From positions 1 through 44,752 of the IMG/VR virus record IMGVR_UViG_2671180296_000008: a stretch of 44,752 nucleotides of DNA. One strand, given 5' to 3'. Each line of letters starts with the position of its first letter. The stretch's first letter is position 1. A program made the position numbers and the translations under genes. The DNA is from a virus (Duplodnaviria > Heunggongvirae > Uroviricota > Caudoviricetes). This document shows positions 2,870 through 44,752 of the stretch, piece after piece. A model generated the notes under the pieces. The model did not search any database. It had not been told where the DNA came from and saw only the letters and a list, made by a program, of their open reading frames with translations.

Positions 2870-2944
2870 GTCCTCTTAGTTAAATGGATATAACGAGCCC
2901 CTCCTAAGGGCTAATTGCAGGTTCGATTCCTGCAGGGGACACCA
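2870..2944 (+). tRNA. argW: tRNA-Arg (anticodon CCU)
   Basis: GTCCTCTTAGTTAAATGGATATAACGAGCCCCTCCTAAGGGCTAATTGCAGGTTCGATTCCTGCAGGGGACACCA; anticodon loop CTCCTAA; T-arm GGTTCGATTCC. Confidence 0.9.
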
Positions 2945-2950
2945 TTTATC
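2930..2950. repeat. attL core: 21-bp direct repeat CTGCAGGGGACACCATTTATC covering the tRNA 3' end
   Basis: Exact 21-nt identity with 43055-43075. Confidence 0.65.
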
Positions 2951-3105
2951 AGTTCGCTCCCATTCGTACCAGTCCGCAAAATTCCCTGAATATCAAGCCT
3001 TCCGCAGATTCACAGTTCGTAATGGTTCGCGTCAGATCGTTGACAGCCGCACTCCGTGACGGGTAAAAAGTGGATAAAATAATTTTACCCACCGGATTTT
3101 TACCC

Positions 3106-4263
3106 ATGCTCACCGTTAAGCAGATTGAAGCAGCAAAGCCGAAAGAAAAACCATACCGCCTTCTCGATGGTAATGGCCTGTACCTTTATGTCCCTGTATC
3201 CGGGAAAAAGGTATGGCAGCTTCGCTACAAGATTGACGGTAAGGAGAAAATCCTGACCGTCGGAAAATATCCGCTTATGACTTTGCAGGAGGCAAGGGAT
3301 AAAGCATGGACTGCGAGGAAAGACATCTCGGTTGGCATCGATCCGGTAAAAGCGAAAAAGGCTTCGTCTAACAACAATTCCTTTAGTGCGATTTACAAGG
3401 AATGGTACGAGCACAAGAAGCAAGTATGGTCAGTAGGCTATGCAACTGAACTTGCCAAAATGTTTGATGACGACATTTTACCCATCATCGGCGGCCTTGA
3501 GATTCAGGATATTGAGCCGATGCAACTGCTGGAAGTAATCCGCAGATTTGAAGATCGCGGTGCAATGGAGCGAGCCAACAAGGCCCGCAGAAGATGCGGC
3601 GAGGTTTTCCGTTACGCTATTGTCACTGGTAGGGCTAAATATAACCCGGCACCTGACCTTGCAGACGCCATGAAAGGATACCGTAAGAAGAACTTCCCAT
3701 TTCTTCCTGCAGACCAGATCCCGGCATTCAACAAAGCACTGGCAACATTTTCAGGAAGTATCGTATCGCTCATTGCCACCAAGGTTTTACGCTATACAGC
3801 CCTAAGAACGAAAGAGCTTCGTTCCATGCAATGGAAGAACGTCGATTTTGAAAACAGGATTATCACCATTGACGCCAATGTGATGAAGGGACGCAAAATT
3901 CATGTGGTTCCTATGTCAGACCAGGTAGTTGAACTTCTCACTACGCTAAGCTCAATCACCAAACCAGTATCAGAGTTTGTTTTTGCCGGGCGCAACGATA
4001 AGAAGAAGCCAATCTGCGAGAACGCGGTATTGCTTGTGATTAAACAAATCGGCTATGAGGGTCTGGAAAGCGGTCACGGATTCAGGCATGAATTCAGCAC
4101 GATTATGAACGAGCACGAATGGCCTGCTGACGCTATTGAAGTGCAACTTGCACATGCCAACGGCGGATCTGTGCGCGGGATTTACAACCATGCTCAGTAT
4201 CTAGATAAGCGCAGAGAAATGATGCAGTGGTGGGCGGACTGGATTGATGAAAAGGTGGAGTGA
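3106..4263 (+). CDS. intS: Tyrosine integrase, IntS-like
   Basis: MLTVKQIEAAKPKEKPYRLLDGNGLYLYV... recognised; start taken at ATG 3106 rather than the GTG at 3070 of the ORF track. Confidence 0.8.
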   Translation: MLTVKQIEAAKPKEKPYRLLDGNGLYLYVPVSGKKVWQLRYKIDGKEKILTVGKYPLMTLQEARDKAWTARKDISVGIDPVKAKKASSNNNSFSAIYKEWYEHKKQVWSVGYATELAKMFDDDILPIIGGLEIQDIEPMQLLEVIRRFEDRGAMERANKARRRCGEVFRYAIVTGRAKYNPAPDLADAMKGYRKKNFPFLPADQIPAFNKALATFSGSIVSLIATKVLRYTALRTKELRSMQWKNVDFENRIITIDANVMKGRKIHVVPMSDQVVELLTTLSSITKPVSEFVFAGRNDKKKPICENAVLLVIKQIGYEGLESGHGFRHEFSTIMNEHEWPADAIEVQLAHANGGSVRGIYNHAQYLDKRREMMQWWADWIDEKVE

Positions 4264-6240: not shown

Positions 6241-8160
6241 TCACCCTGCCTTGGTGTATGTCCAGTTAAATGTTGTTGTTCCCTGGCTTGTGATGGTTAC
6301 AATCCTTCCTGTCACTGTAAATGATATCAACCCTCCTGACTTAAGCGGAGTTAAAGTAAGTGTTGTTCCGTCCCACATGGCAAGCTGAAGCGAAGAGAAA
6401 TTTGTTCCACTGCTTTCTGCCCAAACGCTTATCAGGTACATCCCTTGGCTATTTGGCAGTTCAAACAACGTAGTTGCTACGTTAGCTGCAACAGCCTGAG
6501 TTCCTTTCGCTGTGTACACTGCTGGCAACTGATTACCTGCAGAGCTTCGTGATTCAACATATGAGCCTGAAGTTTGCGTCCCAGTTAATGAGCAGTCAGT
6601 AAATACTCCATTCCCTGTGCTGTAAGTTGATATTACAGGAGTCCCACCAGTCGGAGCCTTAAACCGGCATCCCTCAGCAATTATTTTTGCTGTTGAGTCT
6701 GTCAGCAATGTGTTTGGGTATCCAGAGCCAGTGTAGGTTATTGATTCGCTATCAAGGAAGCTATCGGTACTTGATTTTATGTTAACAATGCTTGTGCCTG
6801 TTGCAAAGATAAATGCTGCTGTCCCACTCCCCGTTGTTTGCATTGAGTTTCCATGCCCGGCCAATCCTGATATATGGGCAATAGTATCATTAAGTTTTAT
6901 ATACGACGCAGTAATTCCATTTGTATTTTTTATTATATTAGACTCACCATCATACCCTGTAATAGTAAGACACTTACATCCAGAAAAATATAACCCTGAG
7001 GAATCAAATGTATATTGCGACCCGTCAACTGTGATCTGGTCTCCTGCACAGTTTATTAGCTGAGGAGACAGGCAATTTACAACATACCATGCCTGTGCTG
7101 CATCCAGCACATAACATGTATCCCACTGTATTGTCGTTCCGTTCGCCTTATAGAAACCATGCGCAACTCTCCTCGCCCATACCTGGGTATACTTTGTTAG
7201 GTAATTTCCAGAGTCATCATATATGGCCCACCATGCACCATCAACCTCAACATTTTTAATGTGCATAACGCCTGGTGAAGTAGTTCCTCCATCAATTAGA
7301 ATGCCAATTTTACCATCATTGCCAGTAGGTGATGTAGGGCGTCCTCCATCGTAAAAAATATAGACATTTTCAATATTTATTGTATTAAACGCTGCGTGGT
7401 AATGGAAACAAGCTATATTTCCTATTACTGCTATGAAAGTTTCCGGCCTATTTATGTTGCTGTTTGTTTCGCCATTTATTGTGCAGTTTGAATTCATCTC
7501 TATCGTTGCATTTACGAAGTAAGTTCCAGATGTCAATAATACATTCCGCCCTGTATTAATTGCGGCCTGTATGCCTGCATAGTCAAGAGACTGAGTTAGT
7601 GATGTTACGAATGGATAAACAGCCTGCGCCGCTGATAGTGTGGAGAATTTCTCGCTGAGTGGATGCAGAGTTCCGTCAGCTGTTGCACCGAAATCCTTGG
7701 CTGAAATGAAGTTGGTATTTTTATCATGTTGAGTTAAAGCTATTGAGCCGATATATGGCTGCTTAACTGCAACTAGTGCATCTCCCATTCCATCAGCATC
7801 GCTTTCTAACTGCTGCTTAAACTGATCAGGGTCATACTTCAGCACATTAGGAAAATAGAACTGCTGTGCACCATACGCATCATATACAGCCATAGAATGG
7901 CCTTGCACAGTTACGAACTTGGCAATCTGTCCGTTATATACAGGGTAACCAGCGGCGTTAATGATGATTGGTTGCGAAACAGGAACGTGAGAGCCGTCTT
8001 CGTTCTCTACATAAACCTGAATCTGGTTTTCAGGATTTACCGGGTCAGTGTCAATTTTACCGATATAAATTTTGCCATTGGCTACGGCTTTAAAAGAACG
8101 AGCCATAGTGAAGAGTTGCGAAGGCATGCTTACCACAACATTTGCGGTGATATCTGACAT
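6241..8160 (-). CDS. Tailspike protein with P22-type N-terminal head-binding domain and a distinct receptor-binding domain
   Basis: N-terminus [59 protein letters not shown]... matches the P22 gp9 head-binding domain by recollection; the rest is divergent. Confidence 0.85.
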
Positions 8161-8281
8161 TTCATTGCTCCAGACGAATGATATGATGCAACCATGATGT
8201 GATTGCATACCGAAATGGTACTATTGAGTATTTATCCAGTAGGTTACGATGCCATTCCACCCAACTGGTGAGGCATCAAGG

Positions 8282-33419: not shown

Positions 33420-34772
<1,353 letters not shown>

Positions 34773-34822
34773 TTCCCACCTCAATCTCGATAACCAAAAA
34801 ACAAACTATTTTCCGTTTAAAA

Positions 34823-34890
34823 ACAACGGAGTTTGTTTTTCACGCCTCTTTTTACAATATTTCTTGTTTACAACATACAATCTTTCTTGT
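34823..34890. promoter_or_regulatory. OL operators (434-type) and pL promoter region
   Basis: 14-bp ACAA-N6-TTGT sites at 34823-34836, 34854-34867 and 34877-34890. Confidence 0.7.
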
Positions 34891-34934
34891 AATTTTAAGC
34901 CATCAGCAGGACGCACTAACCACCATGAAGGTGA

Positions 34935-34965
34935 GGCTCTTAAAAATTAAGCCCTGAAGAAGGGC
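34935..34965 (+). promoter_or_regulatory. nutL (boxA GCTCTTA, boxB GCCCTGAAGAAGGGC)
   Basis: GGCTCTTAAAAATTAAGCCCTGAAGAAGGGC upstream of N. Confidence 0.8.
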
Positions 34966-35151
34966 AGCATTCAAAGCAGAAGGCTTTGGGATTGGATGAA
35001 TGCGCAGGCTGATGCGCACACGAATGTAACTTGCTGGTCAAGTCTCCCCACAGCGACGGGGGTGCAACTGATTCATTTCGTGGCATGTCTAGCTAGCCGG
35101 GGTTCAGCGCCGGCCATCCAATCACCAAAGCTAACTGACAGGAGAATCCAG

Positions 35152-35478
35152 ATGGATGCACAAACACGCCGCCGCGAACGTCGCGCAGAGAAACAGGCTC
35201 AATGGAAAGCAGCAAATCCCCTGTTGGTTGGGGTAAGCGCAAAACCAGTTAACCGCCCTATTCTCTCGCTGAATCGCAAACCGAAATCACGAGTAGAAAG
35301 CGCACTGAATCCGATAGACCTTACGGTGCTGGCTGAATATCACGAACAGATTGAAAGCAACCTGCAGCGTATTGAGCGCAAGAATCAGCGCACATGGTAC
35401 AGCAAGCCACGCAGTGAAATGGGTGTGACTTGTGTCGGTCGCCAGAAAATGAAATTAGGCAGCAAACCACTTATTTGA
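35152..35478 (+). CDS. N: Antiterminator N (lambda-type)
   Basis: MDAQTRRRERRAEKQAQWKAANPLLVGVSAKPVNRPILSLNRKPKSRVESALNPIDLTVLAEY...; start at ATG 35152, ORF-track extension rejected. Confidence 0.9.
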   Translation: MDAQTRRRERRAEKQAQWKAANPLLVGVSAKPVNRPILSLNRKPKSRVESALNPIDLTVLAEYHEQIESNLQRIERKNQRTWYSKPRSEMGVTCVGRQKMKLGSKPLI

Positions 35479-35556
35479 GGTGATATATGGAAGAAGAATT
35501 TGAAGAGTTCGAAGAGCATCCTCAGGATGTGATGGAACAATACCAGGACTATCCTT

Positions 35557-35757
35557 ATGACTACGACTATTGATAAAAATCAATGGTGTGGACAATTCAA
35601 GCGATGCAATGGATGCAAGCTGCAATCGGAATGCATGGTTAAGCCTGAAGAAATGTTTCCTGTAATGGAGGATGGGAAATATGTCGATAAATGGGCAATA
35701 CGAACTACGGCAATGATTGCCAGAGAACTTGGTAAACAGAATAACAAGGCTGCCTGA
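35557..35757 (+). CDS. ral: Restriction alleviation protein Ral
   Basis: MTTTIDKNQWCGQFKRCNGCKLQSECMVKPEEMFPVMEDGKYVDKWAIRTTAMIARELGKQNNKAA matches lambda Ral by recollection. Confidence 0.8.
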   Translation: MTTTIDKNQWCGQFKRCNGCKLQSECMVKPEEMFPVMEDGKYVDKWAIRTTAMIARELGKQNNKAA

Positions 35758-35784
35758 TGGTGGTCTTTATTTTTAAGGTGCTAT

Positions 35785-36027
35785 ATGAAAATTAAAACCA
35801 TGGGCGCAAGCCCATTAAGCGGTCGTATTTTTCAAGGAACATTAAACACTGAAAAAGGAATGTGGGTAGGAAAGAAAGAAGATGTCACCGAACAGGCAGT
35901 TAAGGCAGTAGCTGAACACCTGATGATAAAAGACCAGAAATACGCATACGAAACGAAGGATGGCAAATGGCTGATAATAAGCCATCAACTGGTTGATAAA
36001 TTACCAGAAGATTTTATTGCTGATTAA
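35785..36027 (+). CDS. Hypothetical protein (pL operon)
   Basis: 80-aa ORF, not recognised. Confidence 0.45.
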   Translation: MKIKTMGASPLSGRIFQGTLNTEKGMWVGKKEDVTEQAVKAVAEHLMIKDQKYAYETKDGKWLIISHQLVDKLPEDFIAD

Positions 36028-36099
36028 AATTTTTTTGGCATAAACAACAGAATAAACACTGCACTGTGTATTCATTCCAACGAGTGAATACACGGAGCA

Positions 36100-36471
36100 A
36101 TGTCGCTCGTAACTAAACAGGAGCTGACTTGTTCTGATTATTGGAAATCTTCTTTGCCCTCCAGTGTGAGGGCGATTTTTTTGACGGAGTGTTTTATGGG
36201 TGACATGGGTGAATTTTGGCGAGACTGGAAACCAGAACTTAAAGAAAGACGCCGAAAGGCTCGCGACTCGGCTTTCGAAAGAATATCGGCTTTCTTTAGG
36301 CGCAATGAAGTTGAGTTTGAGGAAGGAAATAACACTCTGATATTCAGAACTCCGAATGGAACAGTAGCTTATTATCCGCCATCGCAACGCATGCAGCATA
36401 AAAACACCTGGAGAGATTGCAGTCCTACCTATTGCATGAATTATGTAAAAAAACTAAGAGCCACCGAATAA
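36100..36471 (+). CDS. Hypothetical protein (pL operon); start uncertain, possibly ATG 36196
   Basis: Same strand as the pL operon; competes with antisense ORF 36001-36399. Confidence 0.3.
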   Translation: MSLVTKQELTCSDYWKSSLPSSVRAIFLTECFMGDMGEFWRDWKPELKERRRKARDSAFERISAFFRRNEVEFEEGNNTLIFRTPNGTVAYYPPSQRMQHKNTWRDCSPTYCMNYVKKLRATE

Positions 36472-36555
36472 ACGACTTTTAATTACCGCATCTTAGTTAG
36501 CATTTATTCAAGTGTTCAATCGTAATGTAATCACAACTAACCAAGGAACTTCCCC

Positions 36556-36690
36556 ATGATGCAACTCAGCTATGCGGGAAGCGGCGTCATGTCCGCTTTC
36601 TACCCGCACGAATCTGAATTATCACGCCGAGTTAAACAATTAATCAGAGCAGCAAAGAAACAACTGGAGGCGTTATGCGCAATGAAATAG
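36556..36690 (+). CDS. cIII: CIII-like small protein (44 aa; candidate FtsH inhibitor)
   Basis: Translated by hand: MMQLSYAGSGVMSAFYPHESELSRRVKQLIRAAKKQLEALCAMK; resembles lambda CIII by recollection. Confidence 0.5.
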   Translation: MMQLSYAGSGVMSAFYPHESELSRRVKQLIRAAKKQLEALCAMK

Positions 36691-36827
36691 CCATCAATCA
36701 CCAGATGCTTCGTGCTGCACAGAACAAAGCAGTAATAGCCAGATTTATTGGTGATTCCAAAATGTGGATTGAAGCAAATAAAGCGATGAAATCAGCTATC
36801 AACCTTCCGTGGTATCGCAGGAAATGA
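36675..36827 (+). CDS. kil: Kil-like small protein (50 aa)
   Basis: Translated by hand: MRNEIAINHQMLRAAQNKAVIARFIGDSKMWIEANKAMKSAINLPWYRRK; the FIGD.KM segment resembles lambda Kil by recollection. Confidence 0.45.
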   Translation: MRNEIAINHQMLRAAQNKAVIARFIGDSKMWIEANKAMKSAINLPWYRRK

Positions 36828-36908
36828 GTTTTACAGATAACTGGTCAGACGAAGAATTCATTCGTCAGATGAACAAAATGCTCAATCAGCACAAAGAACA
36901 GGAGAAAG

Positions 36909-37220
36909 ATGATGATTCTGACTCTGAATGATAAGCGTGAAATATCGCAAATAATCGCAAGTTTTACTGATGAAGATTACGAACGAATCAACAGTGAAGT
37001 TGATCGCCTATGCAAACGTTGCGACCCAATAAGCGAAATGCTTCGCTCATATAAACCAGATGAACACACTAAGGACGCTATCGACTGGCTGGAAGATGAT
37101 GACTGTAACTATCAGGAAAAAGCCGCTGAATGGTTCTGGGATGCAATAACCGAAAGAGTTAAGGCTGAATATGCCTTCGCAATATTCAAACGCAGACATA
37201 TTTATGGAGAAGCAGCATGA
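36909..37220 (+). CDS. Hypothetical protein upstream of recT
   Basis: 103-aa acidic ORF; start may be ATG 36912. Confidence 0.45.
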   Translation: MMILTLNDKREISQIIASFTDEDYERINSEVDRLCKRCDPISEMLRSYKPDEHTKDAIDWLEDDDCNYQEKAAEWFWDAITERVKAEYAFAIFKRRHIYGEAA

Positions 37221-38119
37221 GCAATATCGTTGAATTCGTTAAACAGCAAGAGCAGTTATTCTGCGGAGCATTGACTGAACAGACGGTGACATGGGCTAAG
37301 GAAAGCCAGTTTGCAATTCAGTATTTCCAGAAAAATGATTACCTGGCTAAAACGGCACTGGCAAATCCAACCAGCGCACAGAACGCCATCATCAATGTTG
37401 CGGCGATCGGCATCACCTTAAACCCGGCCAGCAAACTTGCTTATCTAGTTCCGCGCGACGGCATGGTTTGCCTTGATATCAGCTATATGGGATTACTTCA
37501 CCTTGCACAGTCGACAGGATCAATTAAGTGGGGGCAATGCAAACTGGTGTACTCAAACGACACCTATGAATCAAACGGCCTTGATTCAGCACCAACCCAC
37601 AAATACAACGCATTTGGTGAACGAGGCTCTATTGTTGGTGGTTATTGTACGGTTAAAACAGCAGATGGTGACTACCTCACTGAAGAAATGAGTCTGGCAG
37701 AAATTAAAGCTGTGGAAGCAACGAGCAAGGCAAAGAATGGACCGTGGAAGACATTCTGGAATGAGATGGCGCGAAAGACGGTCGTAAAGCGTGCAAGCAA
37801 GTATTGGCCTAAGGCATCACGCCTTGATAGTGCTATTCACGTACTAAACGAAGAAGAAGGCGTGTGGACCGAACCAGTTATGCCGCACAAATCAGAGGAA
37901 GATATCCGCGAAGATGAACGGAAACGCCAGCAGGAAATAATGGATAAAGCACAACTTCTTTGCGATGAAATGGCTCAGGCAGAAAACATGGATGATTTGA
38001 AGCGATATTTTGCAGAAGCATATCGCCTGACATATGGAATGAAATTGCAGCAGAACGTACAAGCCATTTACATAGAATGCAAAGCGAAACTGGAGGTTGC
38101 CAATGAGCAAACTGTATGA
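37217..38119 (+). CDS. recT: RecT-family single-strand annealing recombinase
   Basis: 300-aa ORF with RecT-like core (…GLLHLAQSTGSIKWGQCKLVYSNDTYE…) by recollection. Confidence 0.75.
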   Translation: MSNIVEFVKQQEQLFCGALTEQTVTWAKESQFAIQYFQKNDYLAKTALANPTSAQNAIINVAAIGITLNPASKLAYLVPRDGMVCLDISYMGLLHLAQSTGSIKWGQCKLVYSNDTYESNGLDSAPTHKYNAFGERGSIVGGYCTVKTADGDYLTEEMSLAEIKAVEATSKAKNGPWKTFWNEMARKTVVKRASKYWPKASRLDSAIHVLNEEEGVWTEPVMPHKSEEDIREDERKRQQEIMDKAQLLCDEMAQAENMDDLKRYFAEAYRLTYGMKLQQNVQAIYIECKAKLEVANEQTV

Positions 38120-38585
38120 AATTGCCAATGAATACGCAAAATTGATGGATTCAGATTTAGAACCAGAGATGATTGCTGACACAATAGAAGGCATGGAAGG
38201 AGAATTTACCGATAAAATAGAGCAACTTCTTGCCATTATTAAAAATGAATCTGGTTATGCTGAACGCCTCAAGGAAGAGGCAAAGTCACTGAATGAGCGA
38301 GCCGCAGTAATTCAAAATAAGATTGGCAGCATTATGGCGTATATAGCGTCATCGCTTGAAATGGTTGGCAAGAAAAAGATTAGAGCAGGTATTCACCAGG
38401 TAACAATCCGCAAACCGTCAGAAACTGTAGAAATCATCGACTCAAGCGCCCTTCCTCCTGAATACGTTGAGTTTGAAACGACAATTAAAGCCGACAAACT
38501 GGCAATCAAACACCAACTAAAAGCAGGAATAAATATCCCCGGCGCTCAACTCAAAGTTGGGAAACCTTCACTTCTTATCAAATAA
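38097..38585 (+). CDS. Gp157-family protein (commonly partnered with RecT)
   Basis: 162-aa acidic ORF immediately after recT; family assignment by recollection. Confidence 0.5.
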   Translation: MPMSKLYEIANEYAKLMDSDLEPEMIADTIEGMEGEFTDKIEQLLAIIKNESGYAERLKEEAKSLNERAAVIQNKIGSIMAYIASSLEMVGKKKIRAGIHQVTIRKPSETVEIIDSSALPPEYVEFETTIKADKLAIKHQLKAGINIPGAQLKVGKPSLLIK

Positions 38586-38596
38586 CGGTATCGCCT

Positions 38597-38911
38597 ATGA
38601 AAAAGACTCCATGGGAGAAATGGGAAGTCGATTTCTTGCGCGAAGTGGCGGCAACAATGCCAGTTGAAGTTATCGCTGAAAAACTGGAAAGGACTGAAAA
38701 AGCAGTAATGGCGAAAGCAACAAGGATTGGCGCTGACATTGTTAGCCGACTTCGTGGAAGACGCTGGACAAGAGCCGAAGTATCACTTTTCGGTAAGTTC
38801 TCCGCAGAAGAAATAGCAATTGCAACCTGCCGCTCAATTTATTCAGTAAGAGCTATGCGATACAAGCTAAAAAAACTCGATGAAGAAAGAGCAGGCATAC
38901 GAATAAATTAA
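38597..38911 (+). CDS. Hypothetical protein
   Basis: 104-aa ORF, not recognised. Confidence 0.45.
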
Positions 38912-39091
38912 CAAAGAGGAATTTACCATGAGAGGACTTGCATACAATCCCGGCATTCTTCCGGCAGAAATGATTATTCGCCAACGCGTAAAGCCAATGC
39001 CATCGAGAGAGGAATTGCTTAAGAGAAATTCTTTTCCATCAGTGAATCAAAACAAATATCTGAATGCGATGTGGCGCAAAGGAGGCAACCA

Positions 39092-39736
39092 GTGAGCAAC
39101 CGTTTTTACATGATGTGCTCGCGTGAAACTGTGGGTAATAACGCTTCATTCCATTGCCATAACGGCAATGGTTACAGTTCTGATATCGATCGCGCTCATG
39201 TTTACACGCTGGAAGAAGCCCAAAAAGCCTGGAATTGTGGGCGAGATATAGATCAGCCTGTTTGTGCCGATAGTGTGGATGCAATGGCAGTGTGGCACGT
39301 TGATTGCCAGTACATCCCTACAGAAAGCCTGATTGAGTCAGATTGCACTGAATATGTAGCCTACATAAAAGGTAGATGGAACGGCAACGATGTTTACTGG
39401 CTTCAACATGGTGGATTTCCAACCGATGACTTCAGTAAAGCAACCATCTTTAGCGTCGCCAACAAAAACGAACCAGGAATAGTTTGGTTGCCATTTTCCA
39501 TCACTGATGCAGTAAAGCGCCGGACGTTCAATATCAATAATTTTAACCGCAGAACAATGGTTCAGGGCGCAGGTTTGATCATGCCTGACTGGTTGAAAAA
39601 GCAAAACAGAAGAAAGAAGTCGCGAAGCGGGAAAGTGCGATGGAATTGTCCGCATTGCGGAAAAATTATCTGGCAGTACAGCCCATATGATTTTGAAGGC
39701 TGTCGTGATTACAACTGTGAAGGATGGCGAGTATGA
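39092..39736 (+). CDS. Hypothetical Cys-rich protein with C-terminal zinc-ribbon-like CPHCG...C..C motif
   Basis: GTG 39092 with AGGAGG 7 nt upstream; alternative starts GTG 39071 or ATG 39110. Confidence 0.45.
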
Positions 39737-40620
39737 GAATTGACTATCAGGCACTACGTGAAAAGGCAGAGAAAGCAACGTGGGGTGACTGGGACTCATA
39801 TAAACCACACCGTGGCGCACGTGGTTATGAAGTCAGGCTAAGTAGTCAGGCCATTGCGCAACACGTTCTGAAAAACAACGCTGAATTTATTGCTGCCTTT
39901 AATCCAAAGATTGCTTTGGCATTACTGGATGAACGGGAAAGAAACCAGCAATACATCAAACGCCGCGACCAGGAGAACGAGGATATTGCGCTAACGGTAG
40001 GGAAGCTGCGCGTTGAGCTTGAAGCAGCAAAATCAAAACTCAACGAGCAGCGTGAATATTACGAGGGAGTAATAGCGGATGGAAGTAAGCGCATAGCAGA
40101 ACTGGAAAAACAATGCGCCGAATGGGAGCGAAAAGCATTAAGCAACTTTGAAGAGTGTGCTGCGATGGCTGAACGTATCGAAGAGTTGCAGACAAAATCT
40201 GCACCAGATTCGTTTGGCATCATCGGTGAAAATATTCGAACACAGGATAATCGAATAACGTCAGACCCTATGTTTTGTGTGTATCAAAAGCGCGAAATCG
40301 TTGTTGATGCTGATTATGACTATGACCGGATTGTCTGGGTTGATGAAGATGGCAATGAAGCCAATAAACGCCAAAGTCGTCATCTCGAACTACTTCACGA
40401 AAACTTTCGAGAGCCACCAGAAAAATGGCGGCGCGTTGCTGTGAAAGATATTGATGAATTCGTTACCTGCTGTTTCACCGAACAGGGTTGTAAAGACTAC
40501 CTGGCAGTCAATGGTCACAATCTTCGCTTGCCATTTATATATGTAAATGGCGGTTTCAGGAACGCTGAATATATCGGCATAAGAAACTGGCTTGCTGGCA
40601 TTCGCATCAAAGGAGAGTGA
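39724..40620 (+). CDS. Ead/Ea22-like family protein
   Basis: N-terminal ...IDYQALREKAEKATWGDW... motif and coiled-coil middle resemble Ead/Ea22-like proteins by recollection. Confidence 0.45.
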   Translation: MASMRIDYQALREKAEKATWGDWDSYKPHRGARGYEVRLSSQAIAQHVLKNNAEFIAAFNPKIALALLDERERNQQYIKRRDQENEDIALTVGKLRVELEAAKSKLNEQREYYEGVIADGSKRIAELEKQCAEWERKALSNFEECAAMAERIEELQTKSAPDSFGIIGENIRTQDNRITSDPMFCVYQKREIVVDADYDYDRIVWVDEDGNEANKRQSRHLELLHENFREPPEKWRRVAVKDIDEFVTCCFTEQGCKDYLAVNGHNLRLPFIYVNGGFRNAEYIGIRNWLAGIRIKGE

Positions 40621-40621
40621 T

Positions 40622-40816
40622 ATGGCAACCAACAACCGTAAAGCAAAGATTCTGTTAGTTCGCAGAAACGCTCCTGGCGTCTGGCAGTGGGTGAGACTCA
40701 GCAACCGACGGGTGGGGTTAATGAAACATTACGGGATGATGGATTGTGGTTTTTGCAAAAAGCCCAGCGCGGCGCAAAACCGCTGGAAAAACCACTTGCG
40801 TACTAAAGGAGAGTGA
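40622..40816 (+). CDS. Hypothetical small protein
   Basis: MATNNRKAKILLVRRNAPGVWQW...; preceded by the conserved AAAGGAGAGTGATATGGC junction. Confidence 0.4.
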   Translation: MATNNRKAKILLVRRNAPGVWQWVRLSNRRVGLMKHYGMMDCGFCKKPSAAQNRWKNHLRTKGE

Positions 40817-40817
40817 T

Positions 40818-41027
40818 ATGGCTATTGCCGCAAGTTACACCATGCATCTCTATTGTGACTGCCGCCAGTGTACGGAAGGTGTATATCCAGTGCCAGACTT
40901 CGGTGAGTATATCGGTACGTCATGGTCTGGTTGTGCAAAAGAGGCGCGCAAGGATGGCTGGCGAATAAGCAAAGACAAAACGCGTGCTTTTGCGCCCGGG
41001 CATAAAGTTTTGAGGATTAACAAATGA
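40818..41027 (+). CDS. Hypothetical small Cys-rich protein
   Basis: MAIAASYTMHLYCDCRQCTEG...; preceded by the same junction motif. Confidence 0.4.
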   Translation: MAIAASYTMHLYCDCRQCTEGVYPVPDFGEYIGTSWSGCAKEARKDGWRISKDKTRAFAPGHKVLRINK

Positions 41028-41503
41028 CCACTATTACCAAAGAGCGACTGCTGACAATCAAGCAGTGGCGCGAAACATACGGACCTGGTAGCAACGTTGT
41101 ACTGCCAGCAGAAGAAGCGGAAGAACTGGCGCGGATTGCGCTGGCATCGCTGGAAGCAGAGCCGGTGGCGTGGAAGGTAACCTTCACGCAAATTGACCGT
41201 GAATATAACACGTTCACTGGTATGTATTCTGACAAAGCAGAAGTCGAACGGTGGGTACGTCTGCATAAAGCATGTAATTTTCGGGCAGATATAACACCGC
41301 TTTATACCGCCAAGCCAGTGCCGGTAACTCCGGATGGTTGGGTTATGGTGCCGAAGGAGTTAACGCCGGAAATGATGAGAGCCGTTCAGATTAGAAGTGA
41401 GCTTGGAGGGTATGCCACTTCCAATCTATCTGGTGCATACAATATGTTTTCTGAGTTCTGGAATGTTGCTGTCTCAGCTGCGCCTAAGGTGGATGATTTA
41501 TGA
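41024..41503 (+). CDS. Hypothetical protein
   Basis: 159-aa ORF, overlapping start/stop with its neighbours. Confidence 0.45.
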   Translation: MTTITKERLLTIKQWRETYGPGSNVVLPAEEAEELARIALASLEAEPVAWKVTFTQIDREYNTFTGMYSDKAEVERWVRLHKACNFRADITPLYTAKPVPVTPDGWVMVPKELTPEMMRAVQIRSELGGYATSNLSGAYNMFSEFWNVAVSAAPKVDDL

Positions 41504-41796
41504 ATCTATATCGCTGCCCATTCTGTGGTTCCACTGTGCTTAACATCGGATACTCATTCAGTATCAGAGGGAAAATGCGCTATGTGTCATGCAAATGTGG
41601 TGCCCAAGGATCAGAAAAACGAACTAGATCTGAAGCGATTTCTTCATGGAATAGTCGAATGAAAGTATGGGTTTATGATCCAGAAACAATATTAAACGCT
41701 GAAGAGCGCAGGAGAACAGAAGCCTATATTCATAACCTTAATGAAGATGGATTTACACCAGTGCTTGTAAAGGCTACTCCACAGGAGGTGAAGTAA
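41500..41796 (+). CDS. Lar-family-like restriction alleviation protein (Zn ribbon)
   Basis: N-terminal YRCPFCGS...CKCG motif as in Lar-family proteins by recollection. Confidence 0.5.
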   Translation: MNLYRCPFCGSTVLNIGYSFSIRGKMRYVSCKCGAQGSEKRTRSEAISSWNSRMKVWVYDPETILNAEERRRTEAYIHNLNEDGFTPVLVKATPQEVK

Positions 41797-42074
41797 TGGA
41801 CGCCTTCGCGAAATATACGATTATTGACTGGATAGCCTTCCTTCAGGTTTTGCTCATCTGGTTTTATATGGCTTACAGGAGTGGACAGTGGATTGTCAGT
41901 GTAGCCTGTAGCAAGGGATGGCGTTGGTGGAACCGAAAGAATAAAAAAGCACTGGCATTGGATTCGTTTTACGAAGCATTCAATCTTAACAGTCTTCAGC
42001 CTGGTTCTGTCATTGTAGTCACCACTCAAAGCGGCATGACCATTCAGATTCATAAACCAAAAGAGGAAAAATGA
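41796..42074 (+). CDS. Hypothetical membrane protein
   Basis: 92-aa ORF with a hydrophobic N-terminal segment. Confidence 0.4.
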   Translation: MDAFAKYTIIDWIAFLQVLLIWFYMAYRSGQWIVSVACSKGWRWWNRKNKKALALDSFYEAFNLNSLQPGSVIVVTTQSGMTIQIHKPKEEK

Positions 42075-42385
42075 TGTGGCCTATATGTGTTAATTGCGGA
42101 CGGATGTGCCTATCTGGATGGTGCCGAAAGTGCGACAAATGCACGAAGAAAAGACAATAACATTCCTCGCACTCGCGGGGATTTCTTTTATCTGAACTCG
42201 CTACGGCGGTTTTTTATGGAGATGATAAATGCACTTCCGAGTTACAGGTGAATGGAATGGAGAACCATTCAACAGAGTTATCGAAGCAGAGAACATCAAC
42301 GACTGCTATAACCACTGGATGATATGGGCGCAGATAGCGCATGCAGACGTAACCAACATTCGAATTGAAGAACTGAAAGAACACC

Positions 42386-42410
42386 AAGCCGCCTGATGGC
42401 GGTTTTTTTT
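42386..42410 (+). terminator. Rho-independent terminator
   Basis: GCCGCC-TGAT-GGCGG followed by TTTTTTTT. Confidence 0.6.
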
Positions 42411-42421
42411 GGTGGTAGTAG

Positions 42422-42637
42422 ATGGCTGCAATTCACATTGTATCAATAATATGCAATGCAATTCAGATAGTTGCTTGCATTATCTTTGTTTTCTCAATCC
42501 TTCGCTCCCGACGATATTCTCCAGCAATTAACCGACATCCTGCACAAGTTGAAGCCGTCAGGATGGCTATAGAGTTACGAAATGAGATGAATAAGGCATT
42601 AATGGAGATGGAGAAACCATTCACTGACAAACATTAA
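42422..42637 (+). CDS. Hypothetical small membrane protein
   Basis: 71-aa ORF with hydrophobic N-terminus, between two terminators. Confidence 0.4.
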   Translation: MAAIHIVSIICNAIQIVACIIFVFSILRSRRYSPAINRHPAQVEAVRMAIELRNEMNKALMEMEKPFTDKH

Positions 42638-42713
42638 GAGTGGAAATAAAGAAATCACACCACCTCACTCTCAATGAGGCATTTTCATTTATCAAGATAT
42701 CCAGACCTACCAT

Positions 42714-42736
42714 CACCGCATCAATGCGGTTTTTTA
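42714..42736 (+). terminator. Rho-independent terminator
   Basis: ACCGCA-TCAA-TGCGGT followed by TTTTTTA. Confidence 0.5.
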
Positions 42737-42780
42737 TTGCCTGATTTGCAGGTTCGATTCCCTATTCGGAGATAGCACTC

Positions 42781-42981
42781 ATGCAACACGAACTACAACC
42801 TGATTCACTGGTTGATCTGAAATTCATCATGGCTGATACTGGCTTCGGTAAAACCTTCATCTATGACCGGATTAAGTCCGGCGACCTGCCAAAAGCCAAA
42901 GTTATCCACGGGCGAGCAAGATGGTTATATCGTGACCATTGTGAATTCAAAAATAAGCTCTTAAGCCGCGCCAATGGGTAA
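42781..42981 (+). CDS. torI: Excisionase / recombination directionality factor, TorI/AlpA-family
   Basis: 66-aa ORF MQHELQPDSLVDLKFIMADTGFGKTFIYDRIKSGDLPKAKVIHGRARWLYRDH...; adjacent to attR as for TorI of KplE1. Confidence 0.55.
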   Translation: MQHELQPDSLVDLKFIMADTGFGKTFIYDRIKSGDLPKAKVIHGRARWLYRDHCEFKNKLLSRANG

Positions 42982-43054
42982 AATAGCGGGTAAAATATTT
43001 CTCATATCTCAAAAACACCATTCCAATCAATCCCCTGCTGCCTCAAGTAGATGT

Positions 43055-43075
43055 CTGCAGGGGACACCATTTATC
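43055..43075. repeat. attR core: 21-bp direct repeat CTGCAGGGGACACCATTTATC
   Basis: Exact identity with 2930-2950 (tRNA 3' end). Confidence 0.65.
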
Positions 43076-43504
43076 CTTCCAACGAAATCTACCTTCCCCG
43101 CGTAAAAGTTGGGTTTGGCAGCACACTTGCCCTAAATCTACTCATTTTCCCTGCAACAGGTTGAAATCTCAGCACTGTGCGGCGATGACTAAACAGCCCC
43201 GGGCCTGGCAATGTAATCATCACACAGAATCCTGATCGCGAAATCTGGCTTGACTCGATACTTCACTCCGCAATGCATTCCTTGATGGATTAGCAGGCCC
43301 GTGATACACGGGACAGGTCGCTGAATTACGACAATTTCCTGGAAATCAGCGAACCGCGTATCCTGAGTACATTTGAGCGGCTGTTCCAGAACATGAATGA
43401 GGCGTTTGGATTAGGCGATTATTAGCCGCGCTAAGCATTTTGGTATTATTATTTTCCGGTTGAGGGATATAGAGCTATCGACAACAACCGGAAAGAGTTT
43501 ACGT

Positions 43505-44752
43505 CTATATTGCAGAAGGTACAGGCGTTTCCATCACCATTTGCTCACGTTTTTTACTCAGGAAGAAAATGCCAAATAACAACATCAGGCAGACAATACC
43601 CGAAATTACGAAGAAAACCGTCTGGTAACCTGCATGGTCAAAAAGTATTCCAGTCGGCGTTGAAAGCAACACAATCCCCAACGAACTGGCAATTTGAAAA
43701 CCAATCAGAAAGATCGTCGACGACAGGCGTTTATCAAAGTTTGCCACGCTGTATTTGAAGACGGAAATGACACACAGTGGAACCTCAATGGCATGTAAAA
43801 GCTTCACTAATGAAATAATCCAGGGATTAACGAACAGTGCGCAGGAAAGAATACGCAACGCCATAATCACAACACCGATAAGTAATGCATTTTTTGGCCC
43901 TACCCGATTAACAAAGAAAGGAATAATGGCCATGCACAGCGCTTCGAGTACAACCTGGAATGAGTTGAGATAACCATACAGGCGCGTTCCTACATCGTGT
44001 GATTCGAATAAACCTGCATAAAAAACAGGAAAGAGCTGTTGATCAAAAATGTTATAGAAAGACCACGTCCCCACAATAAATATGACGAAAATCCAGAAGT
44101 TTCGGTCCTTGAAAACTGCAATAAAATCCTCTTTTTTTACCCCTCCCGCATCTGCCGCTACGCACTGCTGATCCTGATATTTAAAACGCATGTTGATCAT
44201 CATAAATACAGCGCCAAATAGCGAAACCAACCAGAAGTTGATATGGGGACTGATACTGAAAAATATGCCAGCAAAGAACGCGCCAATCGCATAGCCAAAA
44301 GATCCCCAGGCGCGCGCTGTTCCATATTCGAAATGAAAATTTCGTGCCATTTTTTCGGTGAAGCTATCAAGCAGACCGCAGCCCGCCAGATACCCCAAGC
44401 CAAAAAAGAGCGCCCCCAAAATTAGACCTACAGAAAAATTGCTTTGCAGTAACGGTTCATAAACGTAAATCATAAACGGTCCGGTCAAGACCAGGATGAA
44501 ACTCATACACCAGATAAGCGGTTTCTTCAGACCGAGTTTATCCTGGACGATGCCGTAGACCATCATAAATAGAATACTGGTAAACTGGTTGACCGAATAA
44601 AGTGTACCTAATTCCGTCCCAGTCAACCCTAGATGTCCTTTCAGCCAAATAGCGTATAACGACCACCACAGCGACCAGGAAATAAAAAAGAGAAATGAGT
44701 AACTGGATGCAAAACGATAGTACACATTTCTGAATGGTATATTCAGTGCCAT
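43505..44752 (-). CDS. cscB: MFS oligosaccharide:H+ symporter, CscB-like sucrose permease
   Basis: 415-aa 12-TM ORF MALNIPFRNVYYRFASSYSFLFFISWSLWWSLYAIWLKG...; LacY-family features; recollection that the csc locus lies next to argW in some E. coli. Confidence 0.55.
   Translation of the reverse strand: MALNIPFRNVYYRFASSYSFLFFISWSLWWSLYAIWLKGHLGLTGTELGTLYSVNQFTSILFMMVYGIVQDKLGLKKPLIWCMSFILVLTGPFMIYVYEPLLQSNFSVGLILGALFFGLGYLAGCGLLDSFTEKMARNFHFEYGTARAWGSFGYAIGAFFAGIFFSISPHINFWLVSLFGAVFMMINMRFKYQDQQCVAADAGGVKKEDFIAVFKDRNFWIFVIFIVGTWSFYNIFDQQLFPVFYAGLFESHDVGTRLYGYLNSFQVVLEALCMAIIPFFVNRVGPKNALLIGVVIMALRILSCALFVNPWIISLVKLLHAIEVPLCVISVFKYSVANFDKRLSSTIFLIGFQIASSLGIVLLSTPTGILFDHAGYQTVFFVISGIVCLMLLFGIFFLSKKREQMVMETPVPSAI

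Follow-up and report, generated by a model that had tools for sequence, protein, structure and literature searches.

The window analysed here is a stretch of 44,752 nucleotides (nt) from a virus of the Caudoviricetes, the complete IMG/VR record IMGVR_UViG_2671180296_000008. It contains a P22-like prophage of about 40 kb, which is integrated at argW (2930-43075). This work deals with the accessory block of the prophage (38597-42637), which consists of 13 small genes on the plus strand between recT/Gp157 and the gene of a TorI-type excisionase. The features are listed in Table 1.

The first ten genes of the block form one translationally coupled string, continuous with recT and the Gp157 gene. 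Neighbouring genes either overlap by 1-13 nt (GTGA, ATGA, TAATG) or are separated by gaps of at most 16 nt. Two single genes, encoding proteins of 55 and 71 amino acids (aa), are located 3' of this string and set apart by terminator-like hairpins. A first-pass annotation, made from the letters of the DNA and a list of open reading frames (ORFs), had described tightly packed or overlapping small ORFs downstream of recT, and all of them are present at the coordinates listed there. It had furthermore described two terminators followed by the excisionase. Hairpins and excisionase exist, but three good hairpins plus a weaker one were found and the excisionase gene lies beyond the interval given for the block. 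For 12 of the 13 products, Pfam or PHROG families were matched with E-values from 1e-8 to 1e-117; the exception is the 29-aa ORF. In contrast, the seven minus-strand ORFs of 55-160 aa had zero family matches and were rejected as genes for this reason. The plus strand is purine-rich across the whole block. Thus, family matches, silent minus strand and purine bias identify the genes of the block as real, beyond chance. The former description of these genes as mostly unrecognised holds for their functions, which are mostly without assignment, but not for the families, which are catalogued (DUF2737, DUF4752, Ead_Ea22, Lar, PHROGs).

Table 1 Coordinates and supporting matches of the features in the window
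Feature	Position	Strand	Remarks
104-aa protein, two helix-turn-helix (HTH)-like repeats, possibly Abc1-like	38597-38911	+	phrog_11492 4.6e-23, phrog_323 2.8e-20
DUF2737 protein	38928-39095	+	55 aa; PF10930, 109 bits; 77% identical to P22 orf56
214-aa protein	39092-39736	+	phrog_2457; GTG start 6 nt past AGGAGG
Ead/Ea22-like protein, 298 aa	39724-40620	+	PF13935, 120.9 bits (cutoff 27), residues 6-128
Junction repeat AAAGGAGAGTGATATGGC (ribosome-binding site-stop-start), copy 1	40609-40626	+	
64-aa basic ORF, coding status less certain	40622-40816	+	phrog_1380, 1.8e-38
Junction repeat AAAGGAGAGTGATATGGC, copy 2	40805-40822	+	
69-aa protein, probable zinc site	40818-41027	+	phrog_926, 9.2e-37
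159-aa protein like N-terminal part of P22 EaA	41024-41503	+	phrog_60, phrog_660, phrog_3323
Lar-family zinc-ribbon protein, 98 aa	41500-41796	+	TIGR03655, PF14354, phrog_599
DUF4752 protein, 92 aa	41796-42074	+	PF15944, 124 bits; hydrophobic N-terminal helix
28/29-aa microprotein, 5 conserved Cys, MWPICxxCGRxCxxxWCxKCDK	42071-42160	+	conservation in other phages
Homologues of the microprotein	L002:2501-2578, L003:2004-2078, L007:1501-1578, L008:1501-1578, L015-L094		
Terminator-like hairpin and T tract, after ten-gene string	42164-42181, with tract to 42190	+	
Weaker hairpin	42196-42215	+	
55-aa acidic protein, one Cys	42229-42396	+	phrog_676, 1.7e-39
Terminator-like hairpin overlapping stop codon of 55-aa gene	42386-42405, feature to 42412	+	
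71-aa protein, N-terminal hydrophobic helix, between two hairpins	42422-42637	+	phrog_15342, 6.7e-52
Terminator-like hairpin upstream of torI	42715-42730, feature to 42738	+	
TorI-type excisionase, last gene of operon	42781-42981	+	phrog_66; 100% identity to 'response regulator inhibitor TorI' WP_001163428.1 of the Prokaryotic Genome Annotation Pipeline (PGAP)
Gp157 / Mu-Gam-like protein	38097-38585		between RecT and accessory block
Ral	35557-35757		PF11058, 162 bits; upstream of accessory block
tRNA-Arg(CCT)	2870-2944		argW; 3' end carries attL copy
attL core CTGCAGGGGACACCATTTATC	2930-2950		21-bp direct repeat, partner of attR
Tyrosine integrase	3070-4263		left prophage end
Tailspike with P22 Head_binding domain	6241-8208		
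attR core CTGCAGGGGACACCATTTATC	43055-43075	.	21-bp direct repeat

Coverage of the region by 80% or more was found neither among phage records nor among 5,426 complete E. coli genomes. For every piece, a segment with 82-100% identity exists in Gally, IME10, P27, Kapi1 or an E. coli prophage, pieces with 93-100% identity to these four phages being among them, and the nearest relative of each block gene is a different phage. On both flanks of the 64-aa ORF the exact 18-bp direct repeat AAAGGAGAGTGATATGGC is present, with its copies 196 nt apart, and provides ribosome-binding site (RBS), stop and start at both junctions of this ORF. It has the look of a mosaic junction, where one cassette may be swapped for another. 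The different nearest phages of the individual genes, together with this repeat, indicate a mosaic of cassettes that can be exchanged independently of one another. The 55-aa and 71-aa genes appear to be single-gene cassettes of the moron type, flanked by terminators and inserted between the ea string and torI; the 71-aa gene is missing in the E. coli prophage L001, which is otherwise similar. Both genes are preceded by a comparable unit composed of hairpin, T-run, RBS and ATG (42196-42231 and 42389-42424; GGCGGTTTTTT..GG.G.T..TA.ATG, 78% identical).

The CPFCG protein of the block had been described as Lar-like, and it passed both curated cutoffs of the Lar family with 57.0 bits for TIGR03655 (cutoff 39.6) and 35.1 bits for PF14354 (cutoff 28.6). 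Its zinc ribbon contains C6, C9, C31 and C33. Compared with Lar/RalR of the Rac prophage of E. coli K-12 (b1348), BLASTP gave 36% identity over 53 aa (E 2e-6) with both knuckles covered. The protein exceeds the single-domain size of about 55-65 aa in this family. Its C-terminal tail of 44 aa (residues 55-98) lies outside the TIGR03655 and PF14354 profiles, yet within phrog_599. By ATGA overlaps on each side the gene is coupled within the ten-gene string. In analogy to Rac Lar, we see an even chance that the protein modulates type I restriction-modification.

For the Ead/Ea22-like protein the earlier assignment was confirmed by the match to PF13935. The protein is composed of the N-terminal Ead_Ea22 part, a coiled-coil region and a portable C-terminal domain (residues ~164-298, 40213-40620). 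It is 82% identical overall to Ea22 of the Shiga toxin (Stx) phage P27, and the C-terminal 135 residues are near-identical. The C-terminal domain is a module of about 130 aa, which was found behind many unrelated N-termini (419 homologues) and carries 24 invariant residues (QDNRxT..P.F, CFTE.GCK, GHN.R.P, RN.E). Such strict conservation suggests an active site or an invariable surface for binding. The structure model of the domain, with a predicted local distance difference test score (pLDDT) of 78.5, gave generic fold matches only, none of them informative. Searches of PDB sequences with the protein or with its C-terminal profile did not match the chain of lambda Ea22, whose domain was solved by nuclear magnetic resonance (NMR). 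With four proteins and this profile only chance-level PDB matches were obtained and rejected, namely NADAR 8bau (E 0.016) on the coiled coil, STY4665 (E 0.27) and clathrin light chain. Both lambda Ea22 and the variant of P27 form tetramers and do not resemble each other in the C-terminal domain, and a tripartite build of short N-terminus, coiled coil and exchangeable C-terminal domain was described for Ea22 (PMC10834534). The protein of the block matches this build. Furthermore, ea22 of lambda and of Phi24B was reported to favour lysogeny (PMC7093339). The Ea22-like protein may thus be an oligomeric coiled-coil scaffold, which displays its C-terminal domain and biases the choice between lysis and lysogeny; this proposal is tentative and we rate it somewhat short of even. 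As a separate observation, the Ea22-like gene and P22 EaD have the same KGE* ending.

The 104-aa protein encoded by the first gene is 100% identical to a protein of phage Gally named 'Anti-RecBCD protein 1, similar to P22 Abc1'. P22 Abc1 also matches phrog_323 and both proteins overlap at profile positions 145-190. The gene is located directly after Gp157 (end 38585) and recT; its counterpart in P22 is abc1 after erf. A BLASTP match to P22 Abc1 was not obtained and the direct pairwise similarity is not significant, with Smith-Waterman z-scores of 0.9 for the full length and 3.5 for repeat 1 against the C-terminal half of Abc1. Hence, 'Abc1-like' is kept as a lead only. It is possible, but on the unlikely side, that this protein with two HTH-like repeats would assist the adjacent recombination module in the way of P22 Abc1. 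The 159-aa protein is 39% identical to residues 1-78 of EaA; no Pfam match was found for it, and the DUF551 domain is absent.

The 214-aa protein had been noticed as a Cys-rich protein ending in CPHCG followed by C..C. A conserved C-terminal zinc ribbon is indeed present, but its Cys spacing is CxxC-x14-C-x4-C, and the N-terminal Cys are not conserved. Among 41 homologues with 46-79% identity, C186, C189 and C204 are invariant and C209 is conserved in at least 90%. A putative C-terminal zinc site is supported by the sequences. The family comprises 141 homologues of near-constant length with 46-94% identity, from E. coli, Klebsiella and Yersinia to Acinetobacter and Methyloprofundus. Three distant copies were examined, and all are located in early-left operons of prophages between repressor and integrase; a constant neighbour or partner gene was not found in the prophages of Yersinia, Acinetobacter and Methyloprofundus. 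The confident AlphaFold model (pLDDT 93.2, predicted template modelling score 0.81) consists of two small alpha/beta domains, a basic helix and the C-terminal C4 zinc ribbon, formed as two beta-hairpins. No fold neighbour of this model was detected in PDB and BFVD. The match in IME10 carries the label 'hkaG: unknown', and a literature search on DUF4752, DUF2737 and hkaG yielded nothing useful.

Two short ORFs at 42071-42160 and 42229-42396 had been regarded as Cys-rich. This is correct for the first one, which is real and has five conserved Cys. The second one belongs to a real family (phrog_676), but contains a single Cys. For the microprotein encoded at 42071-42160 no match was obtained in PHROGs, Pfam and NCBIfam. 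With tblastn, homologues of 64-76% identity were identified in the unrelated virulent phages Deseoctovirus C1, Skatevirus KFS-SE2, a Swiduovirus and Citrobacter phage Tr1. With a degenerate DNA pattern the gene was detected on 83 contigs of IMG/VR, from temperate lambdoid and P22-like phages as well as from unrelated virulent phages of enterobacteria; 27 peptide variants were distinguished, and the homologues are 24-29 aa long. The (K/R)CDK tail, which was not constrained by the search pattern, is retained in nearly all variants. Between window and Tr1, 13 of 23 nucleotide differences are at third codon positions, corresponding to 10 synonymous and 5 non-synonymous codon changes. The start always abuts or overlaps the upstream stop and is preceded by an RBS. 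In many lambdoid contigs a gene for a TraR/Orf73-like C4 zinc finger precedes the microprotein gene. In all 12 E. coli genomes sampled from 183 carriers, the DUF4752 gene was the sole PGAP annotation at this site. The spread of the homologues, the bias towards third positions and the constant start coupling with RBS point to a genuine micro-gene. A zinc site in the peptide is supported as a prediction from its five conserved Cys.

The 64-aa ORF has 40 homologues with conserved basic termini and a middle part that is hypervariable or frame-shifted. In two homologues (P0426, P0430) the middle corresponds to the other frame of the window (ORF 40687-40806), and the frame is regained for the C-terminus KPSAAQNRWKNH. 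C41 and C44 vary among 16 aligned homologues. A C2H2-like zinc finger was rejected for this ORF, since the Cys are not conserved. The constraint seems to be on the termini or on the coupling to the next gene and not on a folded protein. The family of the 69-aa protein comprises 151 clusters at 50% identity, with C13 and G47 invariant and the motifs LYCDCxxC and C-x-APGH / CPxC. From the invariant C13 and these Cys motifs, the protein probably binds zinc. In the DUF4752 protein, IIDWIAFLQVLLIWFYMAY is directly readable.

The wider setting agrees with the earlier placement of the block in the pL operon. After the repressor, genes for lambda-type N, Ral, cIII, Kil and RecT follow on the plus strand (Pfam), whereby Ral was found upstream of the block as previously described, and downstream TorI and attR are located. 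Integrase and excisionase are encoded at opposite ends of the prophage. Right of attR lies a gene for a sucrose/oligosaccharide transporter of the major facilitator superfamily (MFS). At its left edge the window carries, outside the prophage, a partial IS1 transposase gene (PF03400; 1-504, minus strand) next to mlaA. A 158-aa ORF (34296-34772, plus strand), hydrophobic in its N-terminal segment and unmatched in Pfam, was observed between the repressor gene and N. In lambda this place is occupied by rexAB, and the ORF may be a moron expressed in the lysogen. Between the DUF7446 gene and cIII, a 123-aa ORF without convincing family match is present (36100-36471, plus strand), and a strong terminator-like hairpin lies just within its 5' end (36154-36175).

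In our opinion, what this P22-like prophage carries here is very probably a non-essential accessory tail to its pL operon, the counterpart of the P22 ea and the lambda exo-xis regions. Its genes would be transcribed from pL after infection or induction, and with the help of lambda-type N, RNA polymerase would pass the hairpins and reach torI. The products would act separately and not as a single system. Besides those discussed for a certain role, they would be small zinc-binding, basic or membrane proteins, which probably bind host or phage macromolecules. Several points weigh against this picture or parts of it. Neither nutL nor pL was located, the promoter scan was uninformative and the transcription from pL is inferred. 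Nothing points to a function in ten of the 13 genes. The link to Abc1 consists of a shared PHROG profile, with direct similarity not significant. The Lar-like protein has only 36% identity to Rac Lar plus an extra tail of 44 aa, and Lar was also described as DNase toxin RalR (PMC4041452). Finally, the pro-lysogenic effect of ea22 was observed for lambda and Phi24B, whose C-terminal domains differ from the one found here (PMC10834534).

Known anti-defence genes are typically early, small and mosaic in turnover, and zinc-binding mini-proteins are common among their products. These general features recur in the block, in which a Lar-family member is present with Ral upstream, so that it might be chiefly an anti-defence island, most products of which inhibit host restriction or other anti-phage systems. 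We consider this unlikely. Homology to an anti-restriction protein was found in one of the 13 genes only, and relatives of Ea22 show a lysis-lysogeny phenotype (PMC7093339). With 46-94% identity from E. coli to Acinetobacter, the 214-aa family is unlike fast-evolving counter-defence genes. Annotation by hidden Markov models (HMMs) placed 12 of the 13 products in Pfam or PHROG families. The two structure predictions, for the 214-aa protein and the Ea22 C-terminal domain, led to no informative fold neighbour and showed no likeness to a known inhibitor. No PADLOC model matched any of ten ORFs (E up to 0.01), and among the NCBIfam models searched against the ORFs of the block that of Lar alone passed. 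Hence, the view of the first-pass annotation that functions in anti-restriction and host takeover usually reside in this region is only partly supported, because just three products (Lar-, Ea22- and Abc1-like) allow a defensible guess at a function. It is supported for the Lar-like gene and the upstream Ral only; in contrast, Ea22 points to the lysis-lysogeny choice, the first gene is at best Abc1-like and ten genes have no functional assignment. Anti-defence roles of block genes other than the Lar-like one are possible. It appears doubtful that the 214-aa protein and the five-Cys microprotein are new kinds of phage effector, which would bind, for example, a host defence or DNA-transaction protein.

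For the Lar-like gene another function has to be discussed. The founding Rac Lar was alternatively described as the DNase toxin RalR (PMC4041452); in the K-12 annotation it is named 'endodeoxyribonuclease toxin RalR', with the small RNA (sRNA) RalA adjoining. Since the zinc ribbon of the Lar-like protein can be aligned with that of RalR, the gene could encode the toxin of a type I toxin-antitoxin pair of the RalR/RalA type, a small DNase controlled by an antisense sRNA, instead of a protein for restriction alleviation. However, a scan of 34000-43600 against Rfam with E up to 0.1 gave no match, whereby the presence of a RalA model in Rfam was unchecked, and no convincing antisense promoter-terminator pair flanks the gene. 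Moreover, the gene is embedded in the coupled string of ten genes and does not stand alone, its identity to RalR is only 36%, and the C-terminal half is unrelated. A toxin of this kind is therefore very improbable. Equally remote is the idea that the 29-aa and 64-aa ORFs are chance ORFs in spacer DNA: the absence of the former from the family databases and PGAP annotations, and the hypervariable middle, frame change and unconserved Cys of the latter would fit, but the 29-aa ORF is kept in unrelated virulent phages with RBS, overlapping start and an excess of synonymous changes against Tr1, and the frame-shifted homologues of the 64-aa ORF, which has its own PHROG (phrog_1380), regain the frame for the conserved C-terminus.

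Thus, we retain the accessory tail of the pL operon as the best explanation. This kind of block is already known, and near-identical genes are present in public phage genomes. As a whole, it is a typical accessory region of lambdoid and P22-like phages with little significance. Its value is a shortlist of four products: the extended Lar variant, the 214-aa family of unknown fold, the Ea22 C-terminal domain and the largely unannotated five-Cys microprotein.

The Lar-like gene and Rac Lar/RalR share the ribbon above the curated cutoffs and the position between recT and xis in the pL operon. They differ in length, with 64 aa for Rac Lar and 98 aa here, the similarity is confined to the ribbon, and the second knuckle is CKCG here and CNGC in Rac Lar.

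The ea region of P22, which comprises orf56, eaE, orf45, eaF, eaD, eaI, eaA, eaG and eaC between abc and xis, occupies the equivalent place within the pL operon of a P22-like phage. In the block, homologues were found for orf56 (77%), a central segment of EaD (76% over 46 aa) and the N-terminal part of EaA (39% over 104 aa), and a weak EaG-like zinc ribbon is present as well. In contrast, eaC, eaE, eaF, eaI and orf45 have no counterparts; in their place the block carries the 214-aa, 64-aa, 69-aa, Lar, DUF4752, 29-aa, phrog_676 and phrog_15342 genes. The recombination module consists of RecT and Gp157 instead of Erf/Abc2 of P22. Furthermore, Xis is of the TorI type here and int is located at the other end of the prophage.

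The exo-xis region of lambda and Stx phages (orf60a, orf63, orf61, orf73, ea22, ea8.5) is likewise a non-essential early block of the pL operon, which extends from the recombination genes to xis. No Pfam or PHROG match to the families of orf60a, orf61, orf63, orf73 and Ea8.5 was detected in any ORF of the block, and the solved C-terminal domain of lambda Ea22 differs from the one found here, as the PDB sequence searches indicate. Shared with this region is the Ead/Ea22 protein, for which P27 provides the close relative mentioned above. Phage P27 also carries DUF4752 and homologues of the 69-aa and 55-aa genes.

Finally, the prophage can be compared with TorI/IntS of KplE1 (CPS-53) at argW. KplE1 is a remnant, whereas the window holds an apparently complete P22-like genome including the tailspike with Head_binding domain, and the early-left genes yfdP-yfdT of KplE1 are absent here. 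Both have an identical TorI, the tRNA-Arg(CCT) site and integrase and excisionase at opposite ends.

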